Positions 20,008 through 37,048 of a DNA stretch of 64,000 bases are shown here, piece after piece. Both the position numbers and the translations under genes were made by a program. Position 1 is the stretch's first letter; each line of letters begins with the position of its first letter. Source of the DNA: Dictyostelium discoideum. Its lineage: Eukaryota. The stretch is from contig CM000155.2 in the NCBI GenBank assembly GCA_000004695.1, positions 3,072,001 to 3,136,000 on the forward strand, in the 5' to 3' direction. The notes beneath the pieces are model-generated. The model saw only the letters and a program-made list of their open reading frames with translations. It searched no databases and was not told where the DNA came from.

Positions 20008-21686
20008 CTTAAAAAAAATTTAGTCGTTCACCATATGCATATGATAATAATCCAGAAGAAGAAAAAGCAATGTATGATGCAAATGTTGATAAGAATATGA
20101 CAGTTATTAGAATTGAAGATATGAGTGGTAATCCATTTGCAGCAATTAGCTTTTTTGGTGTTCATTGTACTTCAATGAATAATACAAATCATTTAATCTC
20201 TGGTGATAATAAAGGTTATGCAAGTTATCTTTGGGAAAAACATGCCAATGGACAAAGCTCATTACCAGGTACTGGTCCATTCATTGCAGCATTTGGTCAA
20301 AGTAATGAAGGTGATGTTTCACCAAATACCCGTGGACCAACATGTAGAGATGGTAAACCATGTGATTATAAAACAAGTACATGTAATGGCAAAGTCGAGG
20401 AGTGTTGGGCACTAGGACCAGGTACTGATGGTGACATGTTTGAATCAACTCAAATCATTGGTGGTAATCAATTCAACAAGGCATTGGAATTATTTAACAA
20501 TGCAACCATTCAAGTTAGTGGTAAGATTCAATATAGACACACATGGAAACCATTTACCAATGTTTCAGTTGAAGCACCATATAATAGTGGGGTTGAGGGC
20601 GCAACAACATGTAGAGGTGCAATGGGTTATAGTTTTGCTGGTGGTACAACTGATGGTCCAGGTGCATTCAATTTCATTCAAGGTGATAATAGTACAACTA
20701 ATCCATTTTGGAATTTCATCGGTGGTATCATTGCAAAACCAACACCACAACAAACAGCTTGTCAAGCTCCAAAACCAATTTTAATTGATGTTGGTATGGT
20801 TGAACCAATCCCATGGGTACCAGATGTAATGCCACTTCAAATCATTACTTTAGGTCAAATTGTTTTAGTCGCTGTTCCAGGTGAATTCACAACAATGTCT
20901 GGTAGAAGATTAAGAAATACCGTTAGAGAAATCATTGGTCAATCAATTGAAAATCCAATTGTTTTAATTGCTGGTTTAGCAAATACTTATTCAGGTTATA
21001 TTGCAACATTTGAAGAGTTTCAAGTTCAAAGATATGAAGGTGGTAAGTAATAATTTTTAATTTTTTTTTTTTTTTTTTTTTTTTTTTATATATAAAAAAT
21101 TTAAGTAATAATATTAATAATTTTTATTTATTTTTTAAAAGCATCAACCGTTTTTGGACCTCATACTTTAGGAGCATATCAACAAGAATTTGCAAATCTT
21201 GCACAATCAATTGTAGATGGTAGTCAAGCTGATCCAGGAACATTCCCAAGAAATATGTCTGGTCATACACCATTCTTTTTACCACCAGTCATTGTTGATG
21301 TAGCTCCAAAATTCGACGATTTCGGTGATATCTATACTGATGTCTCTACAACTACACCATATTCAATCAATCAAACTGTTACCGTCATTTTCTATGGTGC
21401 CAATCTTAGAAATAATTTCATGACTGAATCTTCTTTCCTCACTGTTGATCAATTACAATCTAATGGTCAATGGACTACAATTTTAAATGATGGTGATTGG
21501 GATACAAAATTATATTGGAAAATGCATGATTTAGGTTTTTCACTCATCACTGTTGATTGGACAATCTCTCCAATCACTCAACCAGGTACTTATAGAATAA
21601 CTCATAGTGGTTATGCTAAGAAAAATCCATTCTCTGATAATTTAACTTTTTATCAAGGTATTTCAAGTAATTTTAATGTTCAATAA
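19013..21686 (+). CDS. Neutral/alkaline ceramidase with N-terminal signal peptide. Five exons: 19013..19178, 19284..19316, 19466..19847, 20024..21042, 21142..21686.
   Basis: Signal peptide MKRSIVFIYSLVILLLSVGF. GIYDITGPGAE..NMMGYAMPGQ..ITGGIHFRQRARAF...NVLLSGTHTHSGPAGF...RSPYAY...FFGVHCTSMNNTNHLISGDNKGYASYLWE...GPFIAAFGQSNEGDVSPN...GPGTDGDMFESTQIIGG...MGYSFAGGTTDGPG...KPILIDVG...ITLGQIVLVAVPGEFTTMSGRRLR...YQVQRYEGGASTVFGPHTL is colinear with human ASAH2. All four introns have GTAAGT/GTATGT-type donors and consistent phases. Confidence 0.85.
19858..19921. repeat. About T64 homopolymer in ceramidase intron 3.
   Basis: Uninterrupted t-run directly after the GTAAGT donor. Confidence 0.9.
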
Positions 21687-23575: not shown

Positions 23576-28096
<4,521 letters not shown>

Positions 28097-28712: not shown

Positions 28713-29281
28713 ATGTTAGTTGCGCCAATTACTTCAATGTATGCAGGAATTTTAGGTATTTATTACCTTAAATTATTATTTGACGTTATTAAGCAAAGAA
28801 GAAAGACAATGACATCTGTTGGTGATGGCTCACAAATATTAATTAAAAAGATAGTTGATGCTGGTAAAAGTGGAAAAACTGAAAATTTTTCAAATATTGA
28901 TTACCTTTTATATGATGATCTTTGTAAGTGTGATTAATAATAATAATATAAAAAAAAAAAAAAAAAAAAAATTAAAAATTATAATTAATAAATAAATAAA
29001 TAATTTTAGTGAAAACTATTAGATCACATGGAAATTTTGGAGAATTTGTGCCATTTGCATTATTATTATCATTAATTTGTGAAATAAATGGAATTCCAGG
29101 TATATTATTAAATGGAGTACTATTTACATTCACAGTTTCAAGATTTGCTCATGTTTCTGGTCTTCATGCTCAATATTCCTTGGGCTCTGGTCGTAAAATT
29201 GGTGTTTTATTAACTATCTTCACACTTTTTTCATTCTCAATTATCTGTATTTTTTATCCAATTTCAAAATACATTTCATAA
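28713..29281 (+). CDS. MAPEG-family membrane protein (YecN-like), copy 1 of 4. Two exons: 28713..28923, 29010..29281.
   Basis: MLVAPITSMYAGILGIYYLKLLFDVIKQRRKTMTSVGDGSQ...DDL/LKTIRSHGNFGEFVPFALLLSLICEINGIPG...FTVSRFAHVSGL matches E. coli YecN (LYAVLGALLLMKFSFDVVRLRMQYRVAYGDGG...AIRIHGNAVEYIPIAIVLMLFMEMNG...AGRLMHYYG). Phase-1 intron with GTAAGT donor. Confidence 0.75.
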
Positions 29282-29874
29282 ATTGATTAACAAACAATAA
29301 AAAATATTCACCTTTCATCACACAAATGAATTAAATAATTATTTTTATTTAATTAATCCTTTCTATTCAATTGCAAACATATTTTTTTTTTCATTTTTTT
29401 TTTTTTTTTTTCATTTCCCCATTTTTTTTTTTATTTTTAAACTCCCATAATTAAAAATAAATTTTTTTTTTTTTTAATCTGCTTATGTCATGTCAAGCAG
29501 TAAATAATATTATGTTTATGTCATTACTTTATTTTCATTCAATCCAGTTTAGATTATTCTGACTCAATATTTATATTTTAGTGAAAGGTTATACACAATT
29601 TTGAGGTGTTACACGAGATATTGTTTTTTAATTTCGATGACTTGTAAAAAAAATTATTTTTATTTTTATTTTTTTTTAAAAATAAAAAAAAAAAAAAATA
29701 TAAATAGACTCATTAAAAAAAAAAAAAAAAAAAAATATAATTTTAAAGTATATTTATATTTATTTAGATAGATAAATATTAGGAAAAAAAAAAATAAAAA
29801 ATAAAAAAAATAAAAATAAAAATAAATAAATCAAAAAATAATAAAAAATAATAATAAATAAATTAAAAATAAAA

Positions 29875-30486
29875 ATGTCAATTTTAGCACCAATTACTTC
29901 AACCTATGCAGGAATTCTAGGTATTTATTACCTTAAATTAACATTTGATATTGGCACAGAAAGAAGAAAAGCAAAAACTTCTATTGGTGATGGTTCACAA
30001 CAATTAATTCAAAAGATAGTTGATGCTGGTAAAAGTGGAAAAACTGAAAATTTTTCAAAAATTGATTACCTTTCATATGATGATCTTTGTAAGTATCATT
30101 AATATAAATAAATAAAAAAAAAAAATAAAAAAAAATAAAAAAATAAAACCAAACCAAAACAAAATAAAATAAAATATTAACAATAATAAATAAATAATTT
30201 AAATTTAGTGAGATCAATTAGAGCACATGGAAATTTTGCAGAATTTGTACCATTAGCATTATTATTTTCATTAATTTGTGAAATTAATGGAATTTCAAGT
30301 AAATTATTAACTGGAATACTATTTACATTAACAGTTTCAAGATTTTCTCATGCAACAGGACTAAGAGCAAGTAATGTTGGACGTAAAATTGGTGTCTCTC
30401 TTACACTACTTTCAATTTTAATCCTTTCAATTCTTTCTATTTATATTCCAAATAAAGATACTATTTTTAATTTATTTAAAAATTAA
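29875..30486 (+). CDS. MAPEG/YecN-like membrane protein, copy 2. Two exons: 29875..30088, 30209..30486.
   Basis: MSILAPITSTYAGILGIYYLKLTFDIGTERRKAKTSIGDGSQ...DDL/LRSIRAHGNFAEFVPLALLFSLICEINGISS...FTLTVSRFSHATGL. Intron position and phase are the same as in copy 1. Confidence 0.75.
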
Positions 30487-30748
30487 AATTAAAATTAAAA
30501 TTAAAAATAAAATAAACTAATAAAAAATTAATAATGACGACTATAACTTTTTTTTTTTTTTTTGAATTCCAAATTTGGAAATCGATGTTGTCAAGCCCAC
30601 AGATATTTTTTATTTTTTAAAAAAAAAAAAAAAAAAAAATTATTAATTAAAAATAAAAAATTCAAAAAAATCAACTTCATCACTTTTTTTTTTTTTTTTT
30701 TTTTTTTTCAATTAACTTTAATTAACCAATATTAAAAATAATAATAAA

Positions 30749-30986
30749 ATGACACTTGTTGTACCAATTACATCAACCTATGCAGGTATTTTAGGATTAT
30801 ACTATTTAATTCTTTCAATAAAAGCAGCAGGAGAACGTTTCAAATCTAGAATTGCAATTGGTGATGGTACCAATCATTTAGTTAGAAAAATTATTACAGC
30901 ATGTAAAACTGGCAATATTGAAGAAGTTGGTAAAATTGATCACCATGCTTATGATAACCTTTGTAAGTAGCAGTAGTAGTATTAAA

Positions 30987-31026
<40 letters not shown>

Positions 31027-31376
31027 AATAATCCTAATTTTTTTATTTATTTTTTTTTTTAAAAAATTATTTCTTTAAATTTTAAGTGGTTTCAATTAGA
31101 TCTCAAGGTAATTTTGGAGAATATGCAATTTTTATTTTATTATTTTCATTAATTTGTGAACTTAATGGAGTACCAGGTAAAATTTTAAATGGTTTACTTT
31201 TAGCATTTACCATTTCAAGATTCGCTCATGTCTCTGGTCTTCATGCTAAATATTCTAATGGTTTTGGTCGTAAAATTGGTGTTTTTTTAACTTTCATCTC
31301 ACTTTTATCACTCTCAGTTATCTGTTTATATTATCCAAATCAAGATACAATTCTTAATTTAATTAACAAACAATAA
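30749..31376 (+). CDS. MAPEG/YecN-like membrane protein, copy 3. Two exons: 30749..30962, 31087..31376.
   Basis: MTLVVPITSTYAGILGLYYLILSIKAAGERFKSRIAIGDGTNHL...DNL/LVSIRSQGNFGEYAIFILLFSLICELNGVPG...FTISRFAHVSGL. Intron position and phase are the same. Confidence 0.75.
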
Positions 31377-31470
31377 ATTAATAATATATATATATATTTT
31401 AAAATAACAAAAATAATTGAGTTGTGGTCATATTATTTTTTTTATTTGACCATTAATTTTTTTGATTTAG

Positions 31471-31505
<35 letters not shown>

Positions 31506-31602
31506 AAATAATTAAAAAGCCTTTTGGGATTACTATTTTCTTGAGTTTAATGAACAATCCTACCATTTATTTTATTAATTAATTTCAAGTTATTTTTTGT
31601 AT

Positions 31603-31645
<43 letters not shown>

Positions 31646-31859
31646 TTTCTTTTATTTTATTTTTTTTTTTTTTTTATTTATTTATTCATTTATCTTTTAT
31701 TGAATTCTTAGGTTCAAAAATATCTTTTCAAAAAAAAAAGGGGGGTACATGTACAATCTCCCATTCAATCATTTCAAAAATTTCCATTGAAAGTGTATAA
31801 TGGTTTAATTAATTTAAATGGAATTAATATTGAATTAATTTAAACATTTTAGATGTTTC

Positions 31860-32640
31860 ATTTGCACTTGGTCAATTAATTAATGCTGAAAATTCTAATC
31901 TCAATATTACATATTGTAATTGGATGAATATTAATACACTTGGCGGTGCTATCAGTGTTGTTGATACAAATGTAACAATTGAAAATTCAACATTTGATTC
32001 ATTGTTTTCACAATTGGGTCCATCTTTTTTTAGCCAATTTAATGATAATCCAAATGTAACATCATCATTCAATATTACTAATTGTGTAACTGAAATTAAT
32101 TATGAGAAATATTTATATCTAGTGCAAATAGGTTAGATACTCCAATAAGTTTTATTAATAATAGTGTATTCTATAATAACAGTAAGCAATACAACTCTGT
32201 AATAAATATCTTTTCATCTCCAATTAGTATTAATGATTGTTAATTTTATTCTGATGTTAATCATTGTGGTAGCTTTTTCAGTATTTACGACTCATTCTTA
32301 ATTATTACAAATTCAACATTAATAAGTTTACTTGATCAAGTAAATTGGTTATCAGAGTATCAATCAATTGATTATAACACCTTAACTTTTTCAAACTCTA
32401 CTGTTTTATTCGATAGTTGTACCTTTGGTAATGATTACACTAGTATTGGCTGTTCTCTCTCATCCAATGTTACATTTATCAATTCAATAAATTTTGATCC
32501 ATTTTATTCTTGTGCAAACTGTAATCATTTAATTGTTGACTCCAATTTAATTCGTGATAGTAAAAGTGTTACAACCTCAACACTGATCCATCATGATAGT
32601 AGTAACTCTTTAAAATTAATTCCAAACATTCATTCAATTA
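31860..32640 (+). pseudogene. Coding-like N-glycosylation-site-rich segment with a hydrophobic C-terminus, interrupted by in-frame stops and a frameshift. Probable pseudogene, or an unresolved multi-exon gene.
   Basis: Begins after a ttttAG acceptor at about 31858. Reads DVSFALGQLINAENSNLNITYCNWMNINTLGGAISVVDTNVTIENSTFDSLF...ITNCVTEI, then a TAG stop, then ...STLISLLDQVNWLSEYQSIDYNTLTFSNSTVLFDSCTFGNDYTSIGCSLSSNVTFINS...LIPNIHSIIIFILLITTIIVS*, with a further TAA stop and frame change in between. Confidence 0.3.
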
Positions 32641-32857
32641 TTATTTTTATCTTATTGATAACAACAATAATAGTCTCTTAATATATTTTTTAATTTAAAT
32701 TAAATAAATCAAGTGATTTTTAAAAGGGTACCTTTAAAAATAATGGAAATTATTTTCACACAAAAAAAAAAAAAAAAAAAAAAAAAATTTTGATTTTTTT
32801 AATTTATTTTTATTTTTTTTTTTTTTTATTTTTATTTTTCACTAAAACAATTTAAAG

Positions 32858-33430
32858 ATGACAATCAAATTAGCAGCAGTTACAGGTACCTATATGGGTA
32901 TTTTAGGTGGTTATTATTTATATTTAACTTTAAATGTAGTAAAGGAAAGACAAAAGGCTAATATTGCAATTGGTGATGGTACAAGTGCAATCATTCAACA
33001 ATTGATTGATGGTAAAAATGAAACAATTGATCACTCTCGTTATCAACCACTTGGTATGTTTTTTAATTTTAATTAATTTAAATTTTTTTTTTTTTTTTTT
33101 TAATTTCCAATTTTTAATGTATTTAATTAATTTATTTTTTTTAATAGTAATTGCAATTAGAGCTCATGGTAATTTTAATGAATATATTCCTTTAATTGGT
33201 GTACTTTCATTAATAAATGAACTCCATGGTGCACCATCTGGTTTAATACACCTTGTTCTTGGTTCATTCACTCTTGCTCGTATTGCCCATGTTCATGGAT
33301 TAAAAGAAAAACATTCAATAGGTTTAGGACGTAAAGTTGGTGCAGTTTCAACTTTCTTAACTTTAGGTCTTGCTTCTGTTGGTTCATTCTATTTCTCAAA
33401 TAAGGAATCTATCCATTCATTAATTGGTAG

Positions 33431-33434
<4 letters not shown>
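32858..33434 (+). CDS. MAPEG/YecN-like membrane protein, divergent copy 4. Two exons: 32858..33053, 33148..33434.
   Basis: MTIKLAAVTGTYMGILGGYYLYLTLNVVKERQKANIAIGDGTSAI...RYQPL/VIAIRAHGNFNEYIPLIGVLSLINELHGAPSG...FTLARIAHVHGL. GTATGT donor; intron is at the homologous position. Confidence 0.7.
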
Positions 33435-34212: not shown

Positions 34213-34574
34213 ATTAAAAAAAAATAAATAAACACTTCTCATTTTCAATTTATTTATTTATTCAATTTTTTTTATTATTATTTATTTATTATTTATTTAT
34301 TTATTTTTAATTTTTTTTTTTTTTTAATTTTACCCCCACTACCCTCTTTTTTTTTTTTTTTTTTTTTTTCTCATATATAATTTTTTCAACACATTACACA
34401 CACACACTAATAATATATCAATTTCGAAACAAAAATAATAGAAACATATAAAAATAGAAATTGATAGGAAAAAAAATATAAAAAAAAAATAAAAAAAAAA
34501 GTTTAAAGAGTTAACAATTTATTATATATAGAAAGAAGAGAGAGAAAATTTTATAAAAAAAGATATAATTGGCA

Positions 34575-37048
34575 ATGGATTTCTATGAACAAAGTTCACA
34601 GTTTTCATTACCACCACCACCAATAATGTCAGAATTACCACCACCACCATCATCATCAACAATGTCGGATCTTCCATTACCAATGCCTGACATTTCTACA
34701 TTACCACCACCAATGTTTGATAATAATAATAGTAGTAGTAGTACAAATTCAGAGGGTATAGACCCATCGTCATTACCACCACCATCAATGGTTGACCTAC
34801 CTCCAATTCCATCAGGTTGGAATGAATGTGATGGAACTGAATTAATACCAGAGATAGATCCATCTGTTAGATTAAATGCAATCATTGTAATTCAATCATC
34901 TTGGAGAGCATTCAGAGAGAGAAGACAATATAAACTATTTTTAAAGGCTGTGGTTATAGTTCAAAAAGTATACAGAGGTTTTTTAGCTAGAAAGCTCTAT
35001 AAAAAATTATATGAAGAATCGCGTTGGTTAAGAGAAACACCACCTCCAACTGGTCCTGCTTTACAAATTGTATGTATATAAATTATTATTATTATTCATA
35101 TTTTATTATTATTATTATTATTATTATTTATTAATACATTTTAATTCTTTAAAATTTAAAAAAGATTAAAAAAGCAAGAGGTGCAGGTGGTAGATCTAGA
35201 CCAACTAGAGGACATAAAGTAGCAACAAAAGAAATTGAAAATTGTACAAATAATAATAATAATGATGAAAATAATAATAATAATACTGATGAAAATGGTG
35301 AAGGTGGTGGTGAGGGTAACGAGTCATCATCAACCGATAAACCAAAATTAGTAATGATGGGTACAGGTATGGTAATTCCAAAATTCGATCCATCTTCAAT
35401 CATGTTAAAAAGAGCACCAAAAGAAGGTAGACATAGTATTGCTTCTTTTGATTCTTTAACAATTAAATCAAAAAGTGCAGAGAATGAGGGTGGTTCATCA
35501 AGTGAACCAAATTCACCATTTGCATTAAGAAAAACTGTAAATAGACCACCTATTCAACAACAACCACCACCACCAGATTCATCACCTGTCTCTTCTTTTT
35601 CACCTTCAAATCTTAGAAAGACAGCTGTAATTAATTCTTCACTACCTCCAATCAATGATCATGATTCACCTTCAAAATTACCACCATTTGTATTAAAGAA
35701 AGCACCATCAACAAATCAATTAAGTTCAAGTGAAGGTTTACCACCTCCACCACCATCATTATCTTCATATGGTGATTTACCACCACCTCCACCACCACCA
35801 TCATTCACATCATTTGGTGATTTCCCACCACCACCACCACCATCAATTTCAGATTTACCACCACCAATTAATTTTAATACAAAACCACCAACACAACCTC
35901 CACCACCAATTCCAAAACAAATGTCACAATCAAATTTACCACCACCACCAATTAATTTTAATACAAAACCACCAACTATTTCAGCTACAGATATTCCATT
36001 ACCTTCAATTGATTTACCACCTATTAGACAACCATCACTTCCATACCATGTATCATCACCAAATCTTCCAACACCACCAAGTTTTAATGCGAAAACAGTG
36101 TCACCAAATTTCCCACCACCAAGATTAACAACTGATAATGTACCACCACCAAGAGTACAAAATGATAATCATAATTTACCACCTCCACCTCAAATTGTAA
36201 ATTTACCACCAATTAATTTTAATAATTCAAATTTACCACCACCACCACCAACATCCTCATCAATGGGAATACCTAATAATTTACCATCACCAATTAATTT
36301 ACCATCACCAATTAATTTACCATCACCAATTAATTTACCACCACCAATTACAGCAAATCAACCACAACCAAATCTATATAATAAACCACCACCAAAATTA
36401 CCATCTCAATCAAATTTATCATTACCAAATAATTTACCACCACCAATTACAGCAACAAAGATATTGAAACCAGGTTGGGAAGTATTTACAACACAAGAAG
36501 GTAAAAAATATTTTTCTAATAGATCTCAAAATTTAACTACTTGGAATGAAAATGATGCATATGATACAACTGTTTCAACACAATCATCATCTCTACCACC
36601 ACCTCCTTCACCATCATCAAATGATTGGGAAGAACTAATGACAAAAGATGGTAAAAAGTATTATTACAATAGAGCAACCAATGTTACAAAATGGGATAAA
36701 CCAATTTCAAATCCAACTTCAGAGATTAGTAATTCACAATCTCATATACCAAATCAATCATTAAATCAATCACCAGTTCAACAATCACAACAACAACAAA
36801 AAACCCAACCATCACCATCATCATCAAAAAAGAAAGAACACCACAAAGAGGTTATTTCACAAAATCCTGAAGAAAAGAAAAGAATTGGTGGTATACTTTC
36901 ATTATTTTTGAAAAAACGTCCAAATAAAACTGATTTAGTCTCAAAAAATATTTTGGTTGATGATGGTACTACTGCTTCAACTTCATCTTCATCCTCATCT
37001 TCTTCTTCTTCAAGTAAATCAAGTAAATCAAAGTCGAAAAAGAAATAA
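34575..37048 (+). CDS. IQ-motif and double-WW-domain proline-rich protein. Two exons: 34575..35069, 35165..37048.
   Basis: IQ-like motifs IIVIQSSWRAFRERRQYKLFLKAVVIVQKVYRGFLARKLYKKL. Many PPPP(P) tracts (LPPPPPPPSFTSFGDFPPPPPPS...). Two WW domains (GWEVFTTQEGKKYFSNRSQNLTTWNENDAY and DWEELMTKDGKKYYYNRATNVTKWDKP). Basic Ser-rich C-terminus. The intron (GTATGT...AG) keeps the frame. Confidence 0.7.

Follow-up and report, generated by a model that had tools for sequence, protein, structure and literature searches.

A stretch of 64,000 nucleotides of Dictyostelium discoideum DNA (contig CM000155.2, positions 3,072,001 to 3,136,000, here called the window) carries between 28713 and 33434 four small genes that encode membrane proteins of the MAPEG superfamily, numbered c1 to c4 in the order in which they lie. 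It is considered quite likely that these are native D. discoideum genes from a eukaryotic branch of the superfamily with a long first loop, that the array has grown locally, and that the proteins would act by a glutathione-dependent mechanism. The original prediction for this DNA saw the likeness to the bacterial protein YecN and proposed that the amoeba lineage may have acquired the gene horizontally long ago. This proposal is not upheld, as the nearest relatives outside Dictyostelium are eukaryotic and rank above every bacterial match, with further evidence coming from a loop insert and signature residues shared with those relatives, from native G+C content at third codon positions (GC3) and from canonical AT-rich introns.

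YecN-like proteins and their eukaryotic relatives

All four proteins match the Pfam MAPEG family (PF01124) at 68.3-75.3 bits, against a gathering cut-off of 23.4, with E values of 9e-19 for c1, 1.5e-20 for c2, 1e-20 for c3 and 6e-21 for c4 and with matches that span nearly the whole of the 129-position model, so the predicted MAPEG membership stands; NCBIfam gave no family match for them. Existing annotation already lists them as hypothetical proteins, MAPEG or glutathione S-transferase-like, and within this known superfamily they are nothing out of the ordinary. To place them within it, a dictyostelid profile was compared by hhalign with YecN as found in the E. coli K-12 genome sequence, with human LTC4S, MGST2 and mPGES-1 (sequences that match the Protein Data Bank, PDB, exactly) and with rat MGST1 (chain 5I9K). 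YecN was aligned over 122 columns with a probability of 98.2% (E 5e-14), against 48% for mPGES-1 (E 1.8e-4), 6.8% for LTC4S (E 0.0053), 2.0% for MGST1 (E 0.025) and 1.5% for MGST2 (E 0.034). The claim that the proteins are nearer to bacterial YecN than to MGST-type MAPEGs is therefore well founded, and the YecN-like motifs quoted for it are present in the proteins. Membership in the classical eukaryotic MAPEG families was not detected by hhalign with the four proteins compared (LTC4S, MGST2, MGST1 and mPGES-1), or by searches of the PDB, where phmmer and the dictyostelid profile yielded no MAPEG chain even with a cut-off as loose as E 10.

Subgroup III of the MAPEG superfamily has been described as bacterial, and its member E. 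coli YecN ('E. coli MGST', UniProt P64515) is reported to show glutathione (GSH) transferase activity with 1-chloro-2,4-dinitrobenzene (CDNB) in membranes of over-expressing cells, its R45, N49 and E52 making up the RX3NX2E motif (PMC13605077). The Dictyostelium proteins are like YecN in being MAPEG proteins with four transmembrane helices (TM1 to TM4), with GDG after TM1, I-R-x-H-G-N-x-x-E-Y-x-P on TM2, G/A-R-x-x-H on TM3 and an arginine before TM4. Unlike YecN, which has 131 residues with 9 of them between GDG and RIHGN, they have 28-35 residues at this place, and thus do not have the compact subgroup III form of about 125-135 residues with a short TM1-TM2 loop. They also depart from the bacterial consensus at the signature residues Y19, L103 and G124, and their genes carry spliceosomal introns and form a tandem array. 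On sequence grounds c1-c4 are assigned to the YecN or 'subgroup III' branch of the superfamily and, within it, to a eukaryotic long-loop sub-branch.

The eukaryotic relatives come from an exhaustive HMMER search in which a dictyostelid-only profile, built from database representatives, was run against 1.84 billion cluster representatives and gave 3130 matches at E of 0.001 or better, most among the matches listed being short. The best matches outside Dictyostelium (E 2e-53 to about 1e-25) are 150-180 residues long and are aligned in a single stretch; the short, bacterial-type matches of 125-135 residues start at E 3e-22 and are aligned in two stretches. In another search, bacterial matches titled 'YecN with MAPEG domain' are found at E 1e-23 and weaker. 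That the short matches might be truncated eukaryotic proteins was rejected, as those with names are bacterial (Glaciecola, Alteromonas, Planctobacterium, Falsiroseomonas, Psychrosphaera). Cluster look-ups place the long relatives in the dictyostelids Polysphondylium violaceum, Tieghemostelium lacteum, Heterostelium album, Cavenderia fasciculata and Synstelium polycarpum, in another amoebozoan, Ceratiomyxa fruticulosa, and in many fungi (Rozella allomycis, Cladochytrium, Batrachochytrium, Gonapodya, Rhizophlyctis, Nowakowskiella and Polychytrium, with Allomyces and Catenaria of the Blastocladiomycota, Umbelopsis of the Mucoromycota and the ascomycete Caeruleum), as well as in a marine protist transcript from MMETSP. 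A further profile search added dozens of Ascomycota (Apiospora, Colletotrichum, Xylariales and many lichen fungi) and, on the basidiomycete side, Atractiella and Malassezia. The metagenomic member P0126 has as neighbours on its contig fragmented kinase, S10 peptidase and 7tm_3 genes, as is typical of a eukaryote. Among the matches there were no animals or plants, and most protists were missing too.

The fungal and amoebozoan proteins, titled 'MAPEG family' or 'membrane-associated, eicosanoid/glutathione metabolism', form an uncharacterised class of 150-180 residues, of which Rozella EPZ36454, Allomyces KNE72808, Gonapodya KXS16187, Heterostelium PPL_04409 and the proteins of Colletotrichum and Apiospora are examples. 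They share with the Dictyostelium proteins the insert in the first loop with GDGT...(K/R)Y-x-x-L...IRAH and the residues of catalytic type, and the two sets are mutual best matches, above all bacterial proteins. They differ in their intron positions, and the copy number and the c2/c3 chimera described below belong to D. discoideum only. No experimental study of these long-loop members was found in the searchable literature, and nothing on a long-loop sub-branch was found in the literature on these genes, on YecN or on MAPEG in Dictyostelium or fungi, the work on fungal MAPEG dealing with MGST3-like proteins (PMC4470081).

It is apparent from the alignment that the distance between GDG and RAHGNF is bimodal, being 9 residues in 105 sequences and 22-48 in about 50, with the long-loop sequences eukaryotic wherever their taxonomy is known. 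The insert follows the pattern GDGT-x-E/Q-x-L ... (K/R)Y-x-x-L-x-x-A-I-R-A-H. An insert of 22-48 residues in the TM1-TM2 loop would thus mark a eukaryotic sub-branch in which dictyostelids and other Amoebozoa stand together with most fungal phyla and some protists, and because c1-c4 would sit within it, the genes would have been inherited within eukaryotes and not taken by the amoeba lineage from bacteria. Within this loop D. discoideum c4 (32990-33030) is without 7 residues that are kept in its orthologues in D. firmibasis and D. dimigraforme, which have 167 residues against 160, so it seems that the insert tolerates changes in length.

Once the loop had been removed from all sequences, a hidden Markov model (HMM) of non-dictyostelid eukaryotes still outscored a bacterial one for 11 of the 12 dictyostelid proteins, by +1 to +17 bits, and for the 15 bacterial controls the bacterial HMM was ahead by 8-28 bits. 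Outside the loop, the columns that discriminate best are common to dictyostelids and other eukaryotes. In the numbering of c4, Y19 is found in 63% of non-dictyostelid eukaryotes, 3% of bacterial-type sequences and 92% of dictyostelids, L103 in 37%, 4% and 92%, and G124 in 61%, 13% and 83%, with the bacterial-type residue at position 103, glycine, present in 24%, 79% and 0% respectively.

It is very improbable that dictyostelids or Amoebozoa received a yecN-type gene from bacteria by horizontal transfer, which then gained an intron and was amplified in tandem, although the likeness of the proteins to YecN is clear and their distance from MGST-type MAPEGs large, the literature treats subgroup III as bacterial (PMC13605077), and a single intron is common to the four copies. 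The long-loop form occurs in all dictyostelid groups, in Ceratiomyxa, in fungi (Rozella, chytrids, Blastocladiomycota, Mucoromycota, Ascomycota and Basidiomycota) and in a marine protist, and outscores every bacterial protein, whilst the insert and the signature residues are common to eukaryotes. The intron marks no ancient event, as it is specific to the D. discoideum complex. The genes are not absent from other eukaryotes, and their nearest relatives are eukaryotic, across Amoebozoa and Fungi. Neither foreign composition nor a lack of host gene features is seen, since the codon composition is native, with G+C (GC) of 0.27-0.32 and GC3 of 0.06-0.14 in c1-c4, like the neighbouring genes.

A neighbour-joining (NJ) tree of 130 aligned columns, with distances capped for saturated outgroup pairs, places the dictyostelids in a eukaryote-dominated cluster with weak bootstrap at its deep nodes, and 31 of the 32 named eukaryotic sequences fall in one cluster. 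A place within a broadly distributed eukaryotic MAPEG clade had been named as counting against the horizontal acquisition; in substance the genes are placed in such a clade, although NJ bootstrap for an exclusive clan is weak.

Several points weigh against the genes being eukaryotic by descent and glutathione-dependent in action. A strict single split between eukaryotes and bacteria was not recovered by NJ with 163 taxa or with 78-82 taxa, and the bootstrap for an exclusive eukaryotic clan on the 130 columns was 0.03-0.05 when strict and 0.44 when relaxed. Nested in the eukaryotic cluster are two short sequences of unknown origin, and the bacteria include one contig sequence that looks eukaryotic. 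As the strict NJ split failed, the case rests on several weaker but independent lines, the ranking of hits, the loop insert, the loop-deleted HMM and the signature columns, and the margin of the loop-deleted HMM is small (-0.6 to +17 bits). The named long-loop proteins in the cluster look-ups are all eukaryotic with one exception, labelled 'MAG: archaeon' (MAG, metagenome-assembled genome), because of which the insert may not be strictly eukaryotic. As for the mechanism, the reported activity of YecN is low and comes from over-expression (PMC13605077). The exception in the look-ups is P0274, a member of the long-loop cluster of P0155 with the title 'MAG: MAPEG family protein [archaeon]' on a 6.5 kb contig, and it is either a misbinned eukaryotic contig or the long-loop form in a prokaryote.

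A genuine if doubtful possibility is that the whole long-loop branch stems from one very old transfer of a bacterial subgroup III gene into an early eukaryote before the split of Amoebozoa and Fungi, by way of the mitochondrial endosymbiont or by other means, and has since descended vertically with losses. This is compatible with c1-c4 being native eukaryotic genes and bears on nothing but the root of the branch. The eukaryotic branch lies closer to bacterial subgroup III than to the other MAPEGs of eukaryotes, the bacterial members are far more numerous and diverse among the matches, and when the NJ tree is rooted on E. coli YecN the eukaryotic cluster lies within bacterial diversity. However, the outgroups that would root the MAPEG tree are saturated (a clan of 4 outgroup sequences has a bootstrap of 0.70), the data are silent on the direction of any transfer, and the lack of animals, plants and most protists among the matches is equally explained by loss.

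Genes passed from one eukaryote to another, as between fungi and amoebae of the soil, could also lie behind the patchy distribution, which is dominated by fungi and Amoebozoa with common soil habitats, and in the NJ tree Caeruleum is interleaved with Cavenderia and Synstelium, and Heterostelium with chytrids. This is improbable, as no bootstrap backs the interleaving, which is what poor resolution with 130 columns would give, the gene occurs in each of the sampled dictyostelid groups and in early-diverging fungi as vertical descent predicts, and intron positions differ between the lineages. Native descent within the eukaryotic long-loop branch is preferred for the Dictyostelium genes. It could well be, although the balance leans slightly the other way, that the long-loop proteins form a coherent and ancient eukaryotic MAPEG family, which was present in the ancestor of Amoebozoa and Fungi and has its own cytosolic loop domain near the glutathione site. 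Current MAPEG classifications, with six eukaryotic families and a bacterial subgroup III, may omit it.

The array, its intron and its neighbours

The array was first described as four same-strand, two-exon genes of about 160 residues within 4.7 kb, and the gene models confirm this, with products of 160-167 residues, all on the plus strand (Table 1), in a window of 23% G+C. The spliced product of c4 is 100% identical to the annotated protein DDB_G0293718 of D. discoideum AX4, and tblastn found no fifth copy in the window. Each gene has one intron of 86-124 nucleotides with 91-94% A+T and GTAAGT or GTATGT...AG borders. As predicted, position and phase are common to all copies, the introns being in phase 1 at alignment column 73, directly before the I-R-x-H/Q-G-N-F motif. 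The proteins are 68% identical between c1 and c2, 57% between c1 and c3 and 53% between c2 and c3, and 258-nucleotide direct repeats in the DNA connect the exons 1 and the exons 2 of c1-c3. As c4 has only 42-45% identity to the other three, it is the most diverged copy, as had been noticed from the outset.

The intron has a short history. It is present in phase 1 in every D. discoideum copy and in those of D. firmibasis and D. dimigraforme, which are orthologues of c2, c3 and c4, but the D. purpureum orthologue (L002 8001-8678) has two introns elsewhere, after residues 8 and 27, Heterostelium (L005 2767-5354) has one after residue 134, near its 3' end, and the Tieghemostelium orthologue is intronless. 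In the fungi the Gonapodya gene has four introns, and the positions in Rozella, Allomyces and Gonapodya all differ from that in Dictyostelium. An intron position shared across dictyostelids and fungi was sought as evidence of deep ancestry and none was found, so the introns are uninformative on the deep history of the genes; intron positions in the long-loop family turn over quickly. It had been claimed that the array expanded after intron gain in the amoebae. The order of events holds, as the duplications postdate an intron that is common to all copies, but the intron is limited to the D. discoideum complex and is not an old amoebozoan one; it would have been gained, or retained, only there. 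The annotated Rozella allomycis gene also has an 'intron' of 27 nucleotides in the loop region (L003 3170-3196), which may be coding sequence and an artefact of annotation, as it is unusually short and a multiple of three.

A check of synteny and copy number in other dictyostelids had been suggested. Genes of the c2-like, c3-like and c4 kinds are all found in D. dimigraforme and in D. citrinum, D. firmibasis carries a c2-like gene, a 5'-incomplete c3-like gene and c4, and D. purpureum has one gene in a locus of 16.7 kb. NJ bootstrap is 0.96 for the clade of c1-3, 1.00 for c4, 0.99 for c3 and 0.74 for c4 with the D. purpureum gene. Heterostelium, with 3 genes, and Allomyces, with 2 (L008 1465-3590), have separate tandem sets that are independent of the Dictyostelium array. 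The public annotation of D. firmibasis fuses its c2-like and c3-like genes into one product of 313 residues (L009 8350-9812). The c3-like copy of this species has no recognisable start, its first 11 codons being lost, and it may be a pseudogene.

The first copy is a chimera of c2 at its 5' end and c3 at its 3' end. From 28700 to about 29140 c1 has 83-97% nucleotide identity to c2, and from about 29150 to 29300 it has 81-85% identity to c3 and only 55-67% to c2. The stop codon of c1 comes earlier than that of c3, and past it leftover c3-type sequence coding for the C-terminus is found (29264-29301 against 31340-31377, 87% identity). This mosaic suggests that paralogues exchanged sequence within the D. 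discoideum lineage, by unequal recombination or crossing-over or by gene conversion. The array would then have grown from an older split that set c4 apart from the c1-3 lineage, through a c2/c3 duplication before the D. discoideum species complex diverged, to the recent recombinant c1 in the lineage of D. discoideum itself. The ratio of non-synonymous to synonymous substitutions (dN/dS) between orthologues is 0.18-0.41, so c2, c3 and c4 are kept by selection; for c1 against c2 the ratio is 0.62.

The genes that flank the array are conserved in D. firmibasis, as fits a native status. Upstream of the array this species has genes for a ceramidase, for a polyprenyl synthase and, on the minus strand, for a protein of 1446 residues, the last of these corresponding in size and position to the NF-X1-type gene of the window. 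Between c3 and c4, at 31851-32681 on the plus strand, there is a degenerate open reading frame (ORF) that is broken by several in-frame stops and by changes of frame. Its product would be rich in N, S and T with a hydrophobic tail at the end; nothing in Pfam matches it, and it probably represents a pseudogene. This interval varies by species, with the c3-like gene of D. firmibasis directly adjoining c4 and the interval in D. dimigraforme holding FNIP-repeat and AIG1-like genes.

Table 1. Exons and introns of the four MAPEG genes and the genes on either side, in positions of the window
Feature	Positions	Strand	Remarks
Neutral ceramidase fragment	20070-21050		array flank
NF-X1-type zinc-finger protein	23576-28096	minus	array flank; 1506 residues
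c1 exon 1	28713-28923	+	ATG to split codon 71; only GTAAGT..AG model giving an open MAPEG protein of 160 residues
c1 intron	28924-29009	+	86 nucleotides, phase 1, 94% A+T, GTAAGT...TTTTAG; column common to all copies
c1 exon 2	29010-29281	+	c1 product 160 residues
c2 exon 1	29875-30088	+	splice model
c2 intron	30089-30208	+	120 nucleotides, phase 1
c2 exon 2	30209-30486	+	c2 product 163 residues
c3 exon 1	30749-30962	+	splice model
c3 intron	30963-31086	+	124 nucleotides, phase 1
c3 exon 2	31087-31376	+	c3 product 167 residues
c4 (DDB_G0293718) exon 1	32858-33053	+	splice model
c4 intron	33054-33147	+	94 nucleotides, phase 1, GTATGT...AATAG; column common to other copies
c4 exon 2	33148-33434	+	c4 product 160 residues
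IQ-motif ORF	34569-35081		array flank
WW-domain ORF	35354-37048		array flank

Fold and putative glutathione-dependent function

An AlphaFold2 monomer model of c4, built on an alignment of 70 sequences, has a mean predicted local distance difference test score (pLDDT) of 94 and four TM helices at residues 7-34, 63-91 (with a kink at P80), 96-117 and 125-149, with an additional short helix at 42-50 in the TM1-TM2 loop. The 39 best Foldseek matches of this model in the PDB are all LTC4S, MGST2 or mPGES-1, with a probability of 1.00 and TM-scores of 0.55-0.70. Human mPGES-1 is like the c4 model in fold (TM-score 0.64-0.70), and R70, H72, N74, E77, R110 and H113 of c4 align with identically numbered residues of it. 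Both mPGES-1 and MGST1 (MAPEG subgroup IV) have a long cytosolic TM1-TM2 loop, as the Dictyostelium proteins do, but there is no significant relationship in sequence (hhalign 48% and 2%, with no match in the PDB profile search) and their long loops cannot be aligned with those of Dictyostelium, the two kinds of long loop having probably arisen independently. LTC4 synthase, MGST2 and FLAP (subgroup I) give the best Foldseek matches (E 4e-3, probability 1.00) and have the R-x3-N-x2-E glutathione motif, but they differ in having only 12-21% identity (hhalign probability of 7% or less), a short TM1-TM2 loop and no GDG motif.

All four copies keep IR[AS][HQ]GNFxE[FY], SRF/ARI-x-H and GRK[IV]G. In c4 numbering the residues of these motifs are R70-x3-N74-x2-E77 in TM2, which follows the R-x3-N-x2-E/D definition of the glutathione-binding motif (PMC13605077), R110 and H113 in TM3, and R127 before or at the start of TM4, with N74, F75, R110 and R127 invariant across 70 homologues. 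They are the residues that bind and activate glutathione in the solved MAPEG enzymes. By analogy with these the proteins are likely to be trimeric glutathione-dependent membrane transferases or peroxidases, a trimer, location, substrate and activity that we infer from the fold and residues described here. The c1-c4 proteins would form homotrimers in a membrane and bind glutathione through the R-x3-N-x2-E of TM2, R110 and H113 of TM3 and R127 of TM4, and lipophilic electrophiles or lipid hydroperoxides would then be conjugated or reduced with it. The short helix of the loop, specific to the eukaryotic proteins, would be found on the face that carries the glutathione site. Several copies may widen the capacity or the range of substrates, as in other detoxification gene families.

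It is possible but unlikely that the proteins are instead non-enzymatic subunits that bind lipids or act as scaffolds in the manner of FLAP, or that catalysis has been lost in some of the copies. FLAP is a MAPEG protein without transferase activity, and c1 is fast-evolving, as its dN/dS against c2 attests. FLAP is without the distal arginine (PMC13605077). As the residues that FLAP lacks are present in c1-c4, a non-catalytic role is the less likely; the full set of R-x3-N-x2-E, R110, H113 and R127 is kept in all four copies, N74, F75, R110 and R127 do not vary in the 70 homologues, and the orthologues are under purifying selection.

The main value of the analysis is that one supposed case of gene transfer from bacteria to Dictyostelium can be struck out, and it illustrates that a strong bacterial likeness can mislead where the eukaryotic relatives are unstudied. 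It is modestly new that MAPEG subgroup III, supposedly bacterial, has a widespread eukaryotic long-loop sub-branch. With four copies, including a recent chimera, D. discoideum could help to find what the long-loop enzymes do and, if they do form an ancient eukaryotic family, Dictyostelium would be a tractable model for finding their substrate.

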